DNA from: an uncultured virus (IMG/VR IMGVR_UViG_3300037657_000059)
Taxonomy: Duplodnaviria; Heunggongvirae; Uroviricota; Caudoviricetes
Strand: one strand, 5' to 3'
Virus record (IMG/VR): IMGVR_UViG_3300037657_000059
Length of the DNA: 64,000 bases
Below the pieces are notes generated by a model. That model was not told the DNA's origin, did no database searches, and saw only the letters and a program-made list of their open reading frames with translations. The translations under genes were made by a program, and so were the position numbers. Positions 25,491 through 64,000 of the stretch are shown one piece after another; the first letter of the stretch is position 1; the number at the start of each line of letters is the position of its first letter.

Positions 25491-25651
25491 TATTTATTTC
25501 CTTTCATCCTGATCAACTTGGTCTCCAACTCTTCAATTCTTTCCCGGTAAAATGCCAACGCTCGGTCGTTCTTTTCATAGTCCTCTTCCAGTATCGAAAG
25601 CATCATGCGGGCATACTCCAGCTCGATCTCTAGATCCAGCTTATTCGGCAT
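25490..25651 (-). CDS. Small coiled-coil protein (MPNKLDLEIEL...)
   Basis: Homologue at 62961-63167. Confidence 0.65.
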   Translation of the reverse strand: MPNKLDLEIELEYARMMLSILEEDYEKNDRALAFYRERIEELETKLIRMKGNK

Positions 25652-26090
25652 ACTTATCCTGCGGATCTTCCTTTTTCTTTCGCAGGATCTCCACCCCATC
25701 TTTCCACTTGCTGATCTCAATGATTGATTTCTCAGCAAAACTATGGTGATGATTGATCCTTTCCAATACCAGATCCTGTTTGCTGGATATCAGCTGCATC
25801 GATTGATTCAGCAGGAATATTGATTTCTGCTGCTCTTCCTGCAATCCCTTGATAAATCGATTGGTATGCGATATCAGCTCACGTTGAAAAGAGTCCCGCT
25901 TCTCCCCTTGCGCTTCATTCCATTGACGCTGCTTCTCAGATTCTGCAGCCTGGAATATACGTTCTTTCTCCCGTGTCTCTTCCCGGACCTTCGCCAATGC
26001 ATCCTCCCGCCTGAGCAGGAAGATCACAACAACAAAAATCAAAACAGCCATTGGCCATTGATTTGCAATGCTTGCCAGAATGGTTTCCAT
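25641..26090 (-). CDS. Single-TM holin-like protein (BhlA/UviB-like)
   Basis: N-terminal TM then coiled coil; near-identical copy at 63169-63606. Confidence 0.55.
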   Translation of the reverse strand: METILASIANQWPMAVLIFVVVIFLLRREDALAKVREETREKERIFQAAESEKQRQWNEAQGEKRDSFQRELISHTNRFIKGLQEEQQKSIFLLNQSMQLISSKQDLVLERINHHHSFAEKSIIEISKWKDGVEILRKKKEDPQDKYAE

Positions 26091-26473
26091 CAATACTCTC
26101 CCCCAATATTCCCTCTGTATGTTTGATTAACTGCCCTGGCAACCAGTTGGGTGATCAAACCCTTGATTAGATCATATAAACCGGAGGCAACCAGACCGAT
26201 CGCTAAACCATAAACGCCAACGCCAAACCAGTACACAAATAGAACATACCAATCCAGGGATAGAGGCGGCCGCTCTGACATGACCATAAAGCCACTACCA
26301 AAGAACAGCCCCAAAAACAATGAAAGCACCAGCAACCCATTCCCCGTGATCAGCTGGCTACCATCCTTCTTAGTAAGGCGTTTCGCCCACTCCACCAGAC
26401 CAAAAACAACAAACAATAATGGCACACCTTTGACCGCTGCCTGCAAAAATGATGTAAAGTCCAACTCCGCCAT
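26090..26473 (-). CDS. Holin (three TM)
   Basis: GLVEWAK..GLAIGLVASGLYD motif; first gene of the late operon. Confidence 0.7.
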   Translation of the reverse strand: MAELDFTSFLQAAVKGVPLLFVVFGLVEWAKRLTKKDGSQLITGNGLLVLSLFLGLFFGSGFMVMSERPPLSLDWYVLFVYWFGVGVYGLAIGLVASGLYDLIKGLITQLVARAVNQTYRGNIGGEY

Positions 26474-26496
26474 TCCATGCTCCTTCCCCATTACAC

Positions 26497-26534
26497 AAAA
26501 AAAGACCGTCAGAAAACTAAGCTCCTGACGGTCT
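26497..26534 (-). terminator. Intrinsic terminator in the late leader
   Basis: AGACCGTCAG-loop-CTGACGGTCT plus U-tract, between promoter and holin. Confidence 0.85.
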
Positions 26535-26609
26535 ATTGCCGCTCTATGGAATTACAACGATCTATTCAATTGGATAAACCAAATCACGCGGTCAATTGCC
26601 GCTACCTGT

Positions 26610-26638
26610 ATTATACATTTTTTCTAACCGTGATGCAA
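26610..26638 (-). promoter_or_regulatory. Late promoter (sigma70-like)
   Basis: TTGCAT-17 nt-TATAAT on the minus strand. Confidence 0.8.
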
Positions 26639-26642
26639 GCGG

Positions 26643-26849
26643 TTAACATTCCCCTTTCCCCTCACTAAACACCACCGGCTTTCCCTCCACTACATGTGAG
26701 ATGCGATACACCAACCAGCGTTTCACATCGATCCTCAGGGACCCAAACCCCCCAGCATCCTTTTTCAGGATCTCCAACCGGTTCTTCAACTCCAAAGCCT
26801 GCTCTGTAGTCATTCCCAACCAATCCGCCACAATCTGCGCTTCATCCAT
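26643..26849 (-). CDS. Small protein, DUF2292/YezD-like, candidate late regulator
   Basis: Helix followed by GFGSLRIDVK..VYRI; last early gene, directly before the late promoter. Confidence 0.5.
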   Translation of the reverse strand: MDEAQIVADWLGMTTEQALELKNRLEILKKDAGGFGSLRIDVKRWLVYRISHVVEGKPVVFSEGKGEC

Positions 26850-27039
26850 TCTGATCCCCCAGCCACAACTTATTAGCTTGAATCTCAAAGCTCTTGCATA
26901 CTTCATTCTCTAAATACTTAATAAACCCTTCAATGTCATTGGGGAGACCATCAGGAAATTTAATCAGAATATTTATCTTTTCAGGGTCATCAGACTCTAC
27001 CTGCTTGATCTCAAATTTAATATTTCCAAAGTCAACCAT
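26842..27039 (-). CDS. Hypothetical protein
   Basis: AGGAG SD; coupled to the next gene. Confidence 0.5.
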   Translation of the reverse strand: MVDFGNIKFEIKQVESDDPEKINILIKFPDGLPNDIEGFIKYLENEVCKSFEIQANKLWLGDQNG

Positions 27040-27086
27040 TTTTTCTCCTATGAGCTATATCATGCCCTTTGGGTACGAGCTATCAG

Positions 27087-27347
27087 CTATGAGCTAATTT
27101 TTTCATTCAGACAAACAAACAATCCCAGCTTCGCCAAAACTTCCAATCCATCTTCATATTCGATTTTTGCTTTAGGATTGGCATAGCGCATCCGTTTAAT
27201 AATCAGAGTACAGGCTTTATCAATCAATAAATAATCTCCATCTTCCGCTTTATCCAGGGTAGACACATAAGCTGCAGCCTGCTCCTTTAACGAAGAAATT
27301 TCAAATAACTCAAGATCCTTGAGAATCTTCTGCTTTTTCTCGTTCAT
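27087..27347 (-). CDS. Hypothetical protein
   Basis: ORF in the early operon; start refined. Confidence 0.5.
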   Translation of the reverse strand: MNEKKQKILKDLELFEISSLKEQAAAYVSTLDKAEDGDYLLIDKACTLIIKRMRYANPKAKIEYEDGLEVLAKLGLFVCLNEKISS

Positions 27348-32031: not shown

Positions 32032-32258
32032 TCGTTCTTCCTTTCGCTTTTAGACTTTAGACTTTCAACTGTAACAATCGGACACCAATCCGGCTTATCC
32101 CTGGGAAAATCAATTCTCTTTCCTGTAAGAGCGCAAAACCATTCTCGAAAACAACTTTGATCAACCAACCGGCAAGCCTGGCAACACGAAGGAATCTCCT
32201 CTTCACTGGAGACAATAATCTTGATAATTCCTTCTAATCTTGGCAAAACATCAGGCAT
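32028..32258 (-). CDS. Small Cys-rich hypothetical protein
   Basis: C-x-x-C..C..PDWCP motif. Confidence 0.55.
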   Translation of the reverse strand: MPDVLPRLEGIIKIIVSSEEEIPSCCQACRLVDQSCFREWFCALTGKRIDFPRDKPDWCPIVTVESLKSKSERKNE

Positions 32259-33063
32259 CTTTTCCTCTATGAGCTTTCAACTTATCCAACCTGTAACTCA
32301 CCATTTTTTTATTCCAGGAATGCCCCATGCGTACGGCAATCTCTTCATACGTCATACCAAGTTCATACCTGGCATACTCCATCCAATCATCGGCTCTGGT
32401 TCGCTCTTTTGATTTCGCCCTTTGCTGAGCAGCGCTGCTCGGAAAAAACTTGATCGTTTTAACCACGCTCTCGCGTACATACCAATTTCCATTCTGAATC
32501 GCTCCAGGAACTTTCCCTCTCCGAATCCTGGTATTCAATGTATTGGATACTTTATATCCAATCATCTCAGCCGCCTCCCCAATCGTAAGCCAGCGATCTC
32601 CCCAATTCTCCTGGGCACGCATCACCAACCGTTTAAGGTGAAAATCCTTCATATTTTCTACCTTGAAAAATACCCAGTGATTCGGTCTGGTGGCCCAGAT
32701 ATATAATGTAATTTTCCGGATATTCAGAATCCCCATTTCTCCAGGAATAATGAAAAAAGGCATCAACCCGGATTGAGACCACCTCATCACAGCATGGATA
32801 TCAACGCCCAGATACCTGGAAACATCATTTCCGGTCAACCATCCATTACGCTTGCTGGGTGGAGCGATTCCCTTGCGTGTGTGATGAATTTTTATTGCAC
32901 TTGGACTTCTTCCCAAAATTTCAGCCACACCTTCATAACCAAGAACACCCAGGTTTTCACTCAAAAATTTATCTTCTTCAAGTGACCATCGTTTTCGGAA
33001 ACAACCGGCTCTTTTTGGCGTTTCCTCCGCGATCATCATATTGATCATAAAATCAAGATTCAT
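32251..33063 (-). CDS. Multi-HTH (Myb-like plus excisionase-like) DNA-binding protein
   Basis: WSLEEDKFL; WLT-x-x-(D/E)-x-x repeats; TYEEIA. Confidence 0.6.
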   Translation of the reverse strand: MNLDFMINMMIAEETPKRAGCFRKRWSLEEDKFLSENLGVLGYEGVAEILGRSPSAIKIHHTRKGIAPPSKRNGWLTGNDVSRYLGVDIHAVMRWSQSGLMPFFIIPGEMGILNIRKITLYIWATRPNHWVFFKVENMKDFHLKRLVMRAQENWGDRWLTIGEAAEMIGYKVSNTLNTRIRRGKVPGAIQNGNWYVRESVVKTIKFFPSSAAQQRAKSKERTRADDWMEYARYELGMTYEEIAVRMGHSWNKKMVSYRLDKLKAHRGKDA

Positions 33064-39579: not shown

Positions 39580-40509
39580 ATGAATACAAAAATCACCCTC
39601 TCTCAGGCAATTGCCGGCTATCTCATCAACCTCTCAGCCAGGCACCTCTCACAAAATACAGTAAATGACTATACGAACACACTCAATAAGCTCACAAAGC
39701 AGATCGGCAGTGACACACAGGTTTCCGATATCGGCATCGATCAGATCAATGCATTTCTGGCAGGCTTCACAGATCTATCCAACAAGACCCTCTCCAACTA
39801 CCACTCCACCCTTTCCACCTTTTTCGATTGGATGATAATCAACAAAATAATCACGGAGAATCCGGTCAATTTCGTACAGCGTGCCAAACCAGAAAGGCGC
39901 GTGATCGATCCCCTTCCGGAGCAGGAGATCAAATCGCTCCTGGATGCGGTCTACCATTCCAAATCCTACGCAAGACAGGGAAAAAAGACCTGCAAAAATT
40001 TACTTCACGACTCAGATCGCAACGTAGCAATCATTTTGTTTATCCTGGATAATGGTGTGCGCGTCTCGGAGCTTTGTGATTTACAAATCAAGGATCTTGA
40101 TCTCAAGCAGCTACGTGCTTTCATTCTGGGAAAGGGATCCAAAGAGCGCTTTGTCCCATTCAGTCCGCGCACCAGCCAGGCGATCTGGCGCTATCATTCC
40201 AGCCGCGGTGAGCTCTATCCGGATGATTTTGTTTTCGTCACGGACCATAACCGGCAGCTCAGGCGGGGTTACATTCTCAAGATGCTGACCAGGGCATCCC
40301 TGCGCGCCGGGATCTCGCACGTCCACCCACACAGACTCCGCCACACTTTCTCGGTCAATTATCTCAGAGCCGGCGGGGATATTTTCACCCTGCAGATGAT
40401 CCTCGGTCATGAGCATCTGGAGATGGTAAGGCATTACTCCAGGTTGGCGCAGTCGGATATTAAAAGAGCGCACAGGAGAGCAAGTCCTGTGGAGTTTTTG
40501 AGACTATAA
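39580..40509 (+). CDS. int: Tyrosine integrase (P2), close homologue of P1 int
   Basis: Same catalytic motifs; collinear with 464-1390. Confidence 0.95.
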   Translation: MNTKITLSQAIAGYLINLSARHLSQNTVNDYTNTLNKLTKQIGSDTQVSDIGIDQINAFLAGFTDLSNKTLSNYHSTLSTFFDWMIINKIITENPVNFVQRAKPERRVIDPLPEQEIKSLLDAVYHSKSYARQGKKTCKNLLHDSDRNVAIILFILDNGVRVSELCDLQIKDLDLKQLRAFILGKGSKERFVPFSPRTSQAIWRYHSSRGELYPDDFVFVTDHNRQLRRGYILKMLTRASLRAGISHVHPHRLRHTFSVNYLRAGGDIFTLQMILGHEHLEMVRHYSRLAQSDIKRAHRRASPVEFLRL

Positions 40510-61891: not shown

Positions 61892-62499
61892 TTTTTATCA
61901 TGCCCACCGGGTACATCTTTTCCATCGTTTACATAATCTGTGACCTGATCGAAGAATTCACCCCACGGATCAGTCTTTTTATCTTCCGGCTCTTTTTGTT
62001 TTGGAGCGACTCCAGCTCGTGATCGCGGCGTGAGATACAAATGCTGTCGCATCTTGAACATAAGATCTCGTTTGCGGTCCACTCTGCCATCCAGCTTTAT
62101 AATCTGATCCATCGAGCCTTGAATCTTTTCCACCATCATCACGGCTTCAACAACATTTCCCTCATCAATAAACTTGCTGTGCGCTTCAATCAGCAGCTGG
62201 TATATCCTGCGTGTGTTGGAGCGCATATCATCCAGCTCACTTACCTGCTCAGCCAGCACACAATAATCAACCAGCAGGTCAAGATCAAAGCGGGTCACAA
62301 TCTCGCCCTCTGTGGAGCGATACTCGCGCATGACTCTGCGCCAGGTTTCCGCTGCAGTCTTCATCTCCCGGATCGCAGCTGGGGCATTGGTCGGCAATTG
62401 TCGCGCTGGTCTTAGCATAGACTCAGATTCCTCGCGTGCCTGGCTCTCGGCCGCCGTATTATGTCTCACAATCAGGGCTTTTGGTTTCCTAGCGGGCAT
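61888..62499 (-). CDS. terS: Terminase small subunit (P2)
   Basis: Homologue of 21883-22473. Confidence 0.85.
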   Translation of the reverse strand: MPARKPKALIVRHNTAAESQAREESESMLRPARQLPTNAPAAIREMKTAAETWRRVMREYRSTEGEIVTRFDLDLLVDYCVLAEQVSELDDMRSNTRRIYQLLIEAHSKFIDEGNVVEAVMMVEKIQGSMDQIIKLDGRVDRKRDLMFKMRQHLYLTPRSRAGVAPKQKEPEDKKTDPWGEFFDQVTDYVNDGKDVPGGHDKK

Positions 62500-62971
62500 T
62501 ATCGGGATTCTCCACATTGGGAAATTTTTTCGTACAGCACTTCCGCTGCGGTCTCGTGTGCGAACCTGGTAGAGATTTCGACCCCCCTATCCCCCCGGCC
62601 GTGGATGACCTACCGAATCCTGAATCAATAGCCGCGGTCTTTCGACTGTGACAACTCTTGCACAATGGCTGCAGATTATCCATCCGGTTGGTACCACCCT
62701 CGCTCAGTGGGACTATGTGGTCCACCTCCGTGGCTACAACTACCTCCCCAATCTCAGCGTGCACCCCCCATATATCAGAACATAGGGGTACTCTTGACAG
62801 CACCAACCCCCTCAGCTTACGCCAATTGGAACCATACCCCCTACTTGCAGCACTACCCCGCCTCAGATCATACCCCCTACTCTCAGACTTATGGGTACCA
62901 CAATATGCCCCATCGCTTACCAGCTCGGGGCATCCAGGGTACTTGCAGGGTTTCTTTGGTTTATTCGGCAT
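62489..62971 (-). CDS. Packaging-associated HNH endonuclease (P2)
   Basis: VDHIVPL..GGTN..NLQPLCKSCHS. Confidence 0.88.
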   Translation of the reverse strand: MPNKPKKPCKYPGCPELVSDGAYCGTHKSESRGYDLRRGSAASRGYGSNWRKLRGLVLSRVPLCSDIWGVHAEIGEVVVATEVDHIVPLSEGGTNRMDNLQPLCKSCHSRKTAAIDSGFGRSSTAGGIGGSKSLPGSHTRPQRKCCTKKFPNVENPDNAR

Positions 62972-63167
62972 ACTCATCCTGTGGATATTTATCCTGTTGA
63001 TACTTATCCTGTGGAACTTCCAAATCTTTCATTTCTTTTTCCAGTTCAGTGATCCGATCCCGGTAGTACTGCAATCCTCGATCATTCAGTTCATGATCAT
63101 CTTCGAGGATTGCCAGCATTAACCTGGCATAATCCAGCTCGATCTCCAGATCCAGCTTATTCGGCAT
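62961..63167 (-). CDS. Small coiled-coil protein
   Basis: Homologue of 25490-25651; C-terminal 5-aa repeats. Confidence 0.65.
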   Translation of the reverse strand: MPNKLDLEIELDYARLMLAILEDDHELNDRGLQYYRDRITELEKEMKDLEVPQDKYQQDKYPQDEYAE

Positions 63168-63168
63168 A

Positions 63169-63606
63169 CTAATCCTGCGGATCTTCCTTTTTCTTTCGCA
63201 GGATCTCCACCCCATCTTTCCACTTGCTGATCTCAACGATTGATTTCTCGGTAAAGATATGATGGTGATTGATCCTTTCCAATACCAGATCGGTCTTACT
63301 GGATACCAGCTGGATCGATTGGTTTAAAAGGGAAATGGATTTCTGTTGATCTTCCTGCAATCCCTTGATAAATCGGTTCGTGTGGGTTATTAACTCTCGC
63401 TGGAAATTATCCCGCTTCTCACCTTGCGCTTCATTCCACACACGCTGCTTCTCAGATTCTGCAGCCTGGAATATACGTTCTTTCTCCCTTGTTTCTTCCC
63501 GGACCTTTGCCAGCGCATCCTCCCGCCTGAGCAGGAAGATCACAACAACAAAAATTAAAACAGCCATTGGCCATTGATTTGCAATGCTTGCCAGAATGGT
63601 TTCCAT
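63169..63606 (-). CDS. Single-TM holin-like protein
   Basis: Homologue of 25641-26090. Confidence 0.55.
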   Translation of the reverse strand: METILASIANQWPMAVLIFVVVIFLLRREDALAKVREETREKERIFQAAESEKQRVWNEAQGEKRDNFQRELITHTNRFIKGLQEDQQKSISLLNQSIQLVSSKTDLVLERINHHHIFTEKSIVEISKWKDGVEILRKKKEDPQD

Positions 63607-63986
63607 CAATTCTCTCCCCCGATTCCTGTGAATGTCTTATTCACCGCTCTTGTAACCAACTGGGTGATCAAACCCTTGATCAGATCATATAATCCGGAGG
63701 CAACCAGACCAATCGCCAGACCATAAACACCAACGCCAAACCAGTACACAAATAGCACATACCAATCCAGGGATAGAGGCGGCCGCTCTGACATGACCAT
63801 AAAGCCACTGCCAAAGAACAGCCCCAAAACCAATGAGAGCACCAGCAACCCGTTCCCCGTGATCAGCTGGCTACCGTCCTTTTTAGTGAGGCGTTTCGCC
63901 CACTCCACCAGACCAAAAACAACAAACAATAATGGCACACCTTTGACCGCTGCCTGTAAAAATGACGTGAAGTCCATTCCTTCCAT
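63606..63986 (-). CDS. Holin (three TM)
   Basis: Homologue of 26090-26473. Confidence 0.7.
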   Translation of the reverse strand: MEGMDFTSFLQAAVKGVPLLFVVFGLVEWAKRLTKKDGSQLITGNGLLVLSLVLGLFFGSGFMVMSERPPLSLDWYVLFVYWFGVGVYGLAIGLVASGLYDLIKGLITQLVTRAVNKTFTGIGGEN

Positions 63987-64000
63987 TCCCAGCTCCTTCC

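Follow-up and report, generated by a model that had tools for sequence, protein, structure and literature searches.

A candidate late-gene switch formed by a twin motif and an overlapping terminator in an uncultured prophage

Introduction

Textbook phage late switches work by processive antitermination (N and Q), by cis-acting RNA (put) or through late activators or sigma factors. Lambda N is a small, basic, arginine-rich protein that binds the ~15-nt boxB hairpin in nascent RNA and acts processively with boxA and Nus factors; HK022 put, a structured RNA of ~70 nt, engages RNA polymerase with no phage protein involved. The DNA sites bound by Q and AlpA lie within or close to the promoter; both proteins depend on a sigma-dependent pause and build a nozzle in the RNA exit channel, according to the available portions of three reports (PMC7969949, PMC9371919 and PMC7547250); AlpA is built from eight helices (H1–H8), with a C-terminal helix-turn-helix (HTH) and a ring-forming N-terminal segment (PMC9371919, same portion). 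In ANTAR dual-hairpin leaders, the second hairpin overlaps an intrinsic terminator and binding excludes the terminator, the first hairpin is also required, and the six-nucleotide loops have A as their first base and G as their fourth (PMC3369931, in the text available). Here we analyse a 64,000-nt stretch of DNA from an uncultured virus (IMG/VR record IMGVR_UViG_3300037657_000059; 'the window' means this whole stretch), which carries two prophages, P1 and P2. Our subject is the minus-strand leader between the early and late genes of P1, in which a predicted promoter is followed by two copies of a short motif, the second merged with an intrinsic terminator. This arrangement recurs in related phages, and on balance we lean towards factor-dependent antitermination at the RNA level as its function.

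Anatomy of the leader

Re-reading the sequence confirmed that the promoter, the 15-nt direct repeats and the terminator described in the original prediction are all present on the minus strand where it had placed them. The putative promoter, TTGCAT-17-TATAAT (26638–26610; hexamers at 26638–26633 and 26615–26610, with TG immediately 5′ of the −10), precedes the 15-mer AGCGGCAATWGACCG, which occurs at 26603–26589 (copy 1, AGCGGCAATTGACCG) and again at 26543–26529 (copy 2, AGCGGCAATAGACCG), the two being separated by a 45-nt linker. Copy 1 starts 8–9 nt past the −10 hexamer, and hence at or near the RNA 5′ end. The terminator (26534–26497) consists of a 13-pair stem, a 6-nt loop and a run of 7 T, and its 5′ arm begins within copy 2, as had been claimed: the last 6 nt of the motif are the first 6 nt of the arm (26534–26529). 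The terminator is succeeded, within 24 nt, by GGGGAAGGAG, a strong ribosome-binding site, and by the first late gene.

Neither the repeat nor the terminator is readily matched by chance. Allowing up to two mismatches, the 15-mer has exactly two sites in 64 kb, leaving no further motif site in the window, and 0 of 100 shuffles contained two or more matches. ViennaRNA folds the terminator at −19.4 kcal/mol (z −6.7), a stability equalled in 0 of 200 shuffles. Terminator scans rank it as the strongest terminator-like site on the prophage minus strand, and in the window they found no other strong minus-strand terminator inside the late operon. Folded alone with ViennaRNA, the mini-hairpins reach −6.0 kcal/mol (copy 1) and −3.9 kcal/mol (copy 2), compared with −19.4 kcal/mol for the terminator; termination is therefore the expected default. 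Each copy had been drawn as a hairpin of the form GCGG-CAAUWGA-CCGY; both do fold, but the structure preferred by ViennaRNA has five pairs, a bulged A and a loop of 4 nt, not four pairs closing a 7-nt loop. We regard the hairpin fold as plausible.

The late genes must be transcribed through the terminator, because the 24-nt gap behind it fits no promoter and because the genes of the related locus L008 adjoin or overlap one another all the way from the leader to terL. The late operon has no other route of entry.

Comparison with described systems

Set beside the ANTAR leaders (EutV, NasR and AmiR), the P1 leader likewise has two short predicted hairpins with similar loops, the second overlapping an intrinsic terminator (by 6 nt, in 6/6 leaders). 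Among three features that define ANTAR systems, this overlap is the only one it shares. Its loops, either the 7-nt CAAUUGA and CAAUAGA or, if an A is bulged, AAUU and AAUA, are not hexaloops with A1 and G4, and no ANTAR domain (PF03861) was found in 42 ORFs (open reading frames); the candidate protein described below is modelled as α-α-β-β, as against the three-helix ANTAR domain. The target differs too, being a phage late operon in P1 and a metabolic operon in ANTAR systems. The original prediction had recognised no ANTAR, Q, RinA or ArpU gene in P1, and Pfam bears this out, matching none of them, and likewise no CAT domain, in the 42 distinct ORFs scanned.

The layout is also that of lambda pR′–tR′–Q and Pseudomonas aeruginosa AlpA–PalpB–tB, as far as the accessible accounts of these systems go: a regulator gene (in P1, a candidate one) lies just upstream, and then come a promoter, at once a terminator, a holin-like gene and a long late operon, with a short leader RNA expected by default. 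P1 differs in the place of its conserved repeat, which is transcribed as part of the leader and runs into the terminator arm, and in that the candidate has 68 amino acids (aa) and a β-hairpin; no Q/AlpA-type protein was matched by Pfam or PHROG in the window ORFs scanned. The proposal for P1 shares with lambda N and boxB (nut) the use of a small phage protein and a short hairpin in nascent RNA, whereas the 68-aa family is mostly acidic and folded, and P1 has two motif copies in one leader, one of them within the terminator. BglG, LicT and SacY offer a further parallel, since there a small, β-rich module that binds RNA stabilises an antiterminator overlapping a terminator (PMC3369931 and PMC12591593, in the sections available), but RAT is a single element of 29–30 nt and the P1 leader has a twin motif. 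The Rfam model bglG-cis-reg scored 17.9 bits on the leader against a gathering score of 80 bits (E 0.57), and no CAT domain was matched in the window ORFs scanned; no Rfam family reached gathering level for the P1 leader, and the best sub-threshold matches are noise.

The position of the P1 repeat, within the transcript and joined to the terminator arm, typifies alternative-structure antiterminators, ANTAR dual hairpins and RAT among them (PMC3369931, as far as its available text extends). The P1 system is nevertheless not a member of the ANTAR, Q/AlpA, N/nut or BglG families, and is best filed as protein-dependent antitermination in a new form with an unassigned protein. No phage late switch of this design was found in the literature searched, whose coverage was incomplete, and one may exist in print.

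Conservation in related phages

Scans anchored on the 68-aa protein encoded just upstream led to five further distinct phage or metagenome loci, with protein identities of 98% (L001), 79% (L004 and L005), 63% (L007) and 59% (L008). With the window, these give six distinct leaders for comparison; a further contig, L009, has the same leader as L008. In 5/5 further contigs, down to 59% protein identity, the leader retains its promoter, terminator and two motif cores, so the repeat conservation on which the earlier interpretation depended was found. The core CGGCAA-N3-ACCG is doubled in 6/6 leaders and the three bases between its halves vary. The overlap of copy 2 with the terminator arm is identical in 6/6, and the outer stem and T run of the terminator are also invariant; elsewhere the terminator shows one compensatory pair change and several G-C/G-U changes among relatives.

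The start-to-start distance of the two copies is 59, 60, 60, 62, 68 and 70 nt in the six leaders, a variability easier to reconcile with recognition on RNA than with phased sites on DNA. In the leader of the most distant relative, L008, the two copies changed together: both read CAAAGAACCG in place of CAA-W-N-GACCG (A/T-N-G-ACCG becoming A-G-A-ACCG), and the change removes a G-C pair at the terminator base. Such a concerted change of both copies at the terminator's expense is what one shared sequence-specific reader would predict. One hairpin change is informative: five leaders have G-U as the outer pair of copy 2, where L008 has A-U, and the equivalent position in L008 copy 1 is U-U.

Outside the motifs, the linker is divergent among leaders except for a CAA-NN-GAATA element. 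In the window this element includes CAATTGA (26572–26566), a loop-like sequence without a flanking stem; with its aligned positions in relatives, it is in effect a third, stem-less copy of the loop sequence. An 11-codon GTG ORF in the window linker was considered as a leader peptide and rejected, being absent or truncated in L001, L005, L007 and L008. Variation within metagenomes follows the same lines. Among the 40 listed of 59 differences in metagenome contigs, those that touch the leader affect the linker, the variable loop position 26534 and a single base separating the −10 hexamer from copy 1; none of the 40 lies in the motif cores or anywhere in copy 1.

The promoter call rests on this comparison. 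TTGCAT agrees with the TTGACA consensus at only 3/6 positions, which is why a generic promoter scan missed it, and TTGC[A/C]T-17-TGTATAAT is kept in 6/6 distinct leaders. An inverted repeat, TAACCG-N9-CGGTTA (26645–26625, minus strand), brackets the −35 hexamer in the window, its first half-site taking in the TAA stop codon (26645–26643) of the 68-aa ORF, and variants of it are present in L001, L004 and L005. L007 (4455–4475) and L008 (4535–4556) have a CAGAA-N6-TTCTG inverted repeat in the promoter spacer instead. These repeats are possible operators or Q/AlpA-like binding elements.

The junction between the 68-aa gene stop and the late promoter (window 26644/26645) is an insertion hot spot. 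Relatives carry from 0 to ~1 kb of unrelated small ORFs there (L001 240–480, L005 1470–2400, L007 4206–4421 and, in reverse orientation, L008 4199–4450), and two metagenome runs have a 686-nt insertion exactly at this junction.

The leader system is real but rare. Protein, twin-motif and terminator scans of viral contigs converge on the same four contigs: a twin-core pattern scan of IMG/VR returned 20 stretches, of which 4 are true leaders, and a scan with the terminator arm, requiring neither CGGCAA nor copy 1, returned 60 loci, and the twin motif was present in 4. A blastn search of INPHARED phage records with 26090–27100 gave no match, nor did a protein-alignment scan of genome contigs; a twin-motif pattern scan of genome contigs (at least 120 stretches) gave the promoter–motif–terminator geometry in none of the screened loci among the matches listed. 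One 24-kb contig (G001) had no match to the P1 leader, the P2 end or the motif. A cluster relative of the 68-aa protein lies in an Anaerolineaceae genome and the DNA occurs in groundwater and coal metagenome runs; the hosts are probably Anaerolineae-type bacteria in such environments. One contig from a metatranscriptome library (X23; 270 nt, ~88% alike) spans 26319–26571, across the terminator, and was not used as evidence of transcription, which a contig does not demonstrate; the library may also contain DNA.

A candidate trans-acting factor

The best candidate for the factor, by position and linkage, is the 68-aa protein encoded at 26849–26643 (minus strand). Its gene lies upstream of the leader in 6/6 distinct leader loci, in line with the co-occurrence that the original prediction had proposed as a check, and no other small gene was found within ~1 kb on that side in every one of the six. 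It occupies the end of the replication/early module, the usual slot for late regulators. The start at 26849 is fixed by 20 close homologues (76–97% identity), nearly all of which begin MDE, and the ATG overlaps the stop codon of the upstream ORF in the window. That upstream ORF (65 aa, 27039–26842) separates a 107-aa ORF from the 68-aa gene in the window only; in L001, L004, L005 and L007 the 107-aa homologue directly abuts the 68-aa gene through the same overlapping ATGGATGA junction.

A profile search returned only 17 proteins or clusters at E ≤0.001 among 1.84 billion cluster representatives. Our family alignment (A2) joined 9 of the 20 close homologues to 14 remote ones and left out the long repeat proteins P0029 and P0033. 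The AlphaFold2 model of the 68-aa protein (pLDDT, the per-residue confidence score, 84; pTM, the overall fold score, 0.65) has a helix at residues 3–11, a second at 15–30 and a long β-hairpin at 36–54. The hairpin carries the invariant residues K43, R44, W45, Y48, R49 and H52 and is preceded by an HTH-like signature, A..LGMT..Q..L. The nearest structural neighbours, at noise level, are HU and winged-helix DNA binders (Foldseek E 0.1–1; VIA Z 2.4 over residues 1–35). The protein had been suggested to act as a dimer; homodimer prediction scored 0.27 against a mark of 0.42, a score from which no verdict is drawn. ESM Atlas gave no usable match for the protein. Scans with sub-alignments of the remote homologues P0021–P0036, and with P0022 alone, gave no new viral loci.

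The resemblance to DUF2292/YezD noted by eye in the original prediction has faint support. The size is similar, as is the order of a helix and then a G-x-V-x-[IV] β-hairpin, and hhalign pairs the family with three genuine DUF2292 proteins over 31 columns (probability 41.7%, pairwise E 2.7e-4). With the DUF2292 hidden Markov model (PF10055), two of 26 family members match at E 0.01–0.16, with 12–16 bits against a 22-bit gathering cut-off, but the window protein has no match even at E ≤10. A Chloroflexota sample gave weak matches in 4/401 genomes, all DUF2292-like small ORFs without the leader. The literature searched gave no function for DUF2292 (the one relevant paper mentions the family only in passing, in the part available), and membership would therefore add no functional information.

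Two annotations were set aside. A PDB sequence match, 8vd6_A (E 2.2e-10), is spurious, being assembled from five weak repeat matches (~9 bits each) that fall on the helix-turn-helix-like stretch, and the JGI label 'Txe/YoeB family toxin', on three near-identical copies in the P0001 cluster, is unsupported by Pfam or NCBIfam.

Proposed mechanism and alternatives

We propose that the TTGCAT-17-TATAAT promoter would start a leader of ~105 nt whose default end would be the terminator, 24 nt before the first late gene; with the factor absent, only this short leader RNA would be made, as at lambda pR′–tR′. While the RNA is being made, a phage-encoded factor would recognise its two CGGCAA-N3-ACCG copies, each folded into a weak mini-hairpin. 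Copy 1, at the RNA 5′ end, would emerge first and pre-load the factor, allowing copy 2 to be captured before the terminator folds; factor bound to copy 2 would block pairing of the terminator 5′ arm, and RNA polymerase would continue into the ~23-kb late operon. The leading candidate for this role would be the helix–helix–β-hairpin protein at the end of the early region. A local mechanism of this kind is sufficient, because the late operon holds no other strong terminator. The earlier interpretation is partly supported: its geometry and its placing of the leader at the early/late boundary stand, the arrangement is conserved in relatives, and the DUF2292 assignment is not confirmed at the Pfam threshold. 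For the reading as a whole, a late-gene switch of a temperate siphovirus-like prophage in which a terminator-overlapping twin motif is read by a phage factor, we see an even chance.

Several observations weigh against this proposal. The stems are CGG/CCG in every leader, so that covariation neither supports nor refutes them: no hairpin pair is altered on both sides and all shuffles tie, and copy 1 of L008 forms only three pairs. With covariation silent and the hairpins marginal, the motif may be read as single-stranded RNA or double-stranded DNA. The sample is n=6 distinct leaders only. Regarding the factor, the window protein has an isoelectric point (pI) of 5.75, with 10 K/R against 11 D/E and no arginine-rich stretch, and pI is below 7 in 18/26 members of this mostly acidic family. 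The protein has no Pfam, PHROG or NCBIfam match and no recognised RNA-binding domain, and fold searches gave no significant match (Foldseek against PDB, best E ~1, to HU; BFVD, best E 0.12; VIA, Z ≤2.9). Its linkage to the leader is synteny rather than independent evidence, because all leader loci are from related phages, and other conserved early genes are equally linked, among them that for a 270-aa HTH_17/sigma-70 region 4 protein (32251–33063). The two elements are also not always adjacent, being separated by one ORF in L001 and L007, by a reverse Cys-rich ORF in L008, by ~1 kb in L005 and by 686 nt in metagenome contigs. We therefore treat the assignment of the 68-aa protein as the antitermination factor as tentative, and doubt the more specific idea that it founds a new family of sequence-specific RNA-binding antiterminators, distant kin of DUF2292/YezD, that would clamp the two mini-hairpins to turn on the late programme in a passive, terminator-specific way.

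The twin motifs might instead load a factor, on nascent RNA in the manner of nut/boxB or on DNA, that then travels with RNA polymerase, which would make the terminator overlap secondary. Such processive antitermination would suit three features: promoter and leader terminator precede a holin-like gene and a long late operon, as in lambda pR′–tR′ and P. aeruginosa PalpB–tB–alpB (PMC7969949 and PMC9371919, in the portions available); a constant 8–9 nt separates the −10 hexamer from copy 1 in all leaders; and the inverted repeats, which overlie the −35 in the window type and fall in the spacer of L007 and L008, take the positions of Q/AlpA binding elements. We nonetheless think it unlikely: no Q or AlpA homologue is found among the 42 distinct ORFs, and P. 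aeruginosa AlpA, which the available text describes through helix H8 with DNA contacts up to H142, contrasts with a model of two helices and a β-hairpin. The leader alignment, inspected by eye, shows no conserved −10-like pause element past the start site, there are no further strong late-operon terminators that would require processivity, and nothing would explain why 6/6 leaders have copy 2 fused in the same way with the terminator arm. That fusion is equally awkward if the motifs are double-stranded DNA operators, at which a repressor, or the 68-aa protein as a DNA binder, would sit on copy 1 (~+2 to +14) and on copy 2 (60–70 bp further) to block or road-block the late promoter while the terminator serves as an independent insulator of the early operon. 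Copy 1 does overlap the start site, a common place for an operator, invariant cores are expected from base-specific contacts, and the HTH-like signature, the β-hairpin and the weak, non-significant model neighbours HU and winged-helix proteins might point to a DNA binder. The motif is non-dyad, however, with both copies in one orientation, its spacing varies by 11 bp (59–70) and helical phase is not kept, and separate passage through the terminator would still be needed, as the 24 nt after it fit no promoter; we rate this explanation as slightly less likely again.

There may also be no dedicated factor, the terminator being a leaky attenuator or the terminator of the early operon, copy 1 a stabilising 5′ hairpin and copy 2 a part of the terminator duplicated by descent; or a host protein, such as an ANTAR regulator, may read the motif. 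The weakness of the mini-hairpins and the failure of homology searches to yield a binding protein are in keeping with this. Yet the CGGCAA half of copy 2 is invariant although it lies outside the terminator stem, both copies are altered together in L008, and a terminator of −19 kcal/mol with 7 U before all late genes is an improbable default for a phage that needs those genes; for a host ANTAR reader, the motif loops break the hexaloop rule (PMC3369931, in the part available). Of the explanations considered, we find this the least probable. We thus infer recognition at the RNA level by a phage-encoded factor as the preferred account of the leader.

If that account is true, P1 carries an attenuator-like phage late switch in which two short RNA motifs, one merged with the terminator, are read by a very small protein, a new solution to late-gene control. 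Were the 68-aa protein also the founder of the new family suggested above, the switch would be passive and terminator-specific, unlike the processive N, Q, AlpA and put systems, and would provide an initial clue to function for the uncharacterised DUF2292-like small proteins. It would also offer a first handle on an unannotated family of ~65-aa proteins, the 17 clusters found among 1.84 billion representatives, in a poorly known host group. The module is compact, at ~150 nt plus a 207-nt gene, so it can be put straight into a reporter assay and may have a use as an orthogonal genetic switch.

Genomic context and other observations

The first late gene (26491–26090, minus strand) encodes a holin-like membrane protein with three hydrophobic segments, which agrees with the predicted holin just after the terminator in kind, but its start is more likely the in-frame ATG at 26473, after the ribosome-binding site, than 26491. 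PHROG holin families match it at E 0.004 only, and in L007 and L008 it is swapped for an unrelated membrane protein. The second late gene (26093–25641, minus strand) encodes a 150-aa protein that begins with a membrane segment, includes a coiled coil and has no Pfam or PHROG family match; the gene is also present in P2 and in L008 (58% identity to L008:5196–5630). The late operon (26491–2963), entirely on the minus strand, continues with unassigned genes, including one for a 525-aa repeat protein, and then HNH, small terminase, large terminase and structural genes to ~2963; its first genes are lysis-like. Upstream on the same strand lies a replication-type module with ParB-like and DUF5131 genes, the gene for the 270-aa HTH_17/sigma-70 region 4 protein and a replication-initiator-like gene, together with a phrog_27524 gene, an HNH gene, a VRR-NUC gene and several small ORFs.

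At 62400–63998, P2 carries nearly the same pair of genes as P1 does at 25641–26491, one holin-like and one for a membrane/coiled-coil protein (146 aa in P2), and in P2 they stand directly before the HNH and terminase genes. The P2 holin-like gene runs off the window at 63998, which places any P2 leader past base 64000. At the equivalent place, P1 has ~2.7 kb of extra genes (25490–22893), including that for the 525-aa protein (24772–23195), with its repeated GNPT-G-P-I-Q-H units. At the left end of the window, a transfer RNA (tRNA) gene (183–256, 61 bits) adjoins a tyrosine integrase gene (464–1390), and a second integrase gene (39580–40509) lies between the prophages, which suggests tandem integration at or near a tRNA site.

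The IMG/VR scans also brought up two groups of contigs with shared regions of their own. Eleven contigs (L165, L167, L177, L179, L180, L185, L186, L191, L199, L204 and L205) have in common an AT-rich region that ends in one long terminator (ACCGTCAGAGTGCC...GGCGTTCTGACGGTC) and is unrelated to the P1 leader. Seven others (L154, L159, L182, L193, L194, L202 and L212) share a promoter-like sequence, a short leader and a terminator (ACCGTCA-N-TGACGGTC), a region that may be another short-leader control region.

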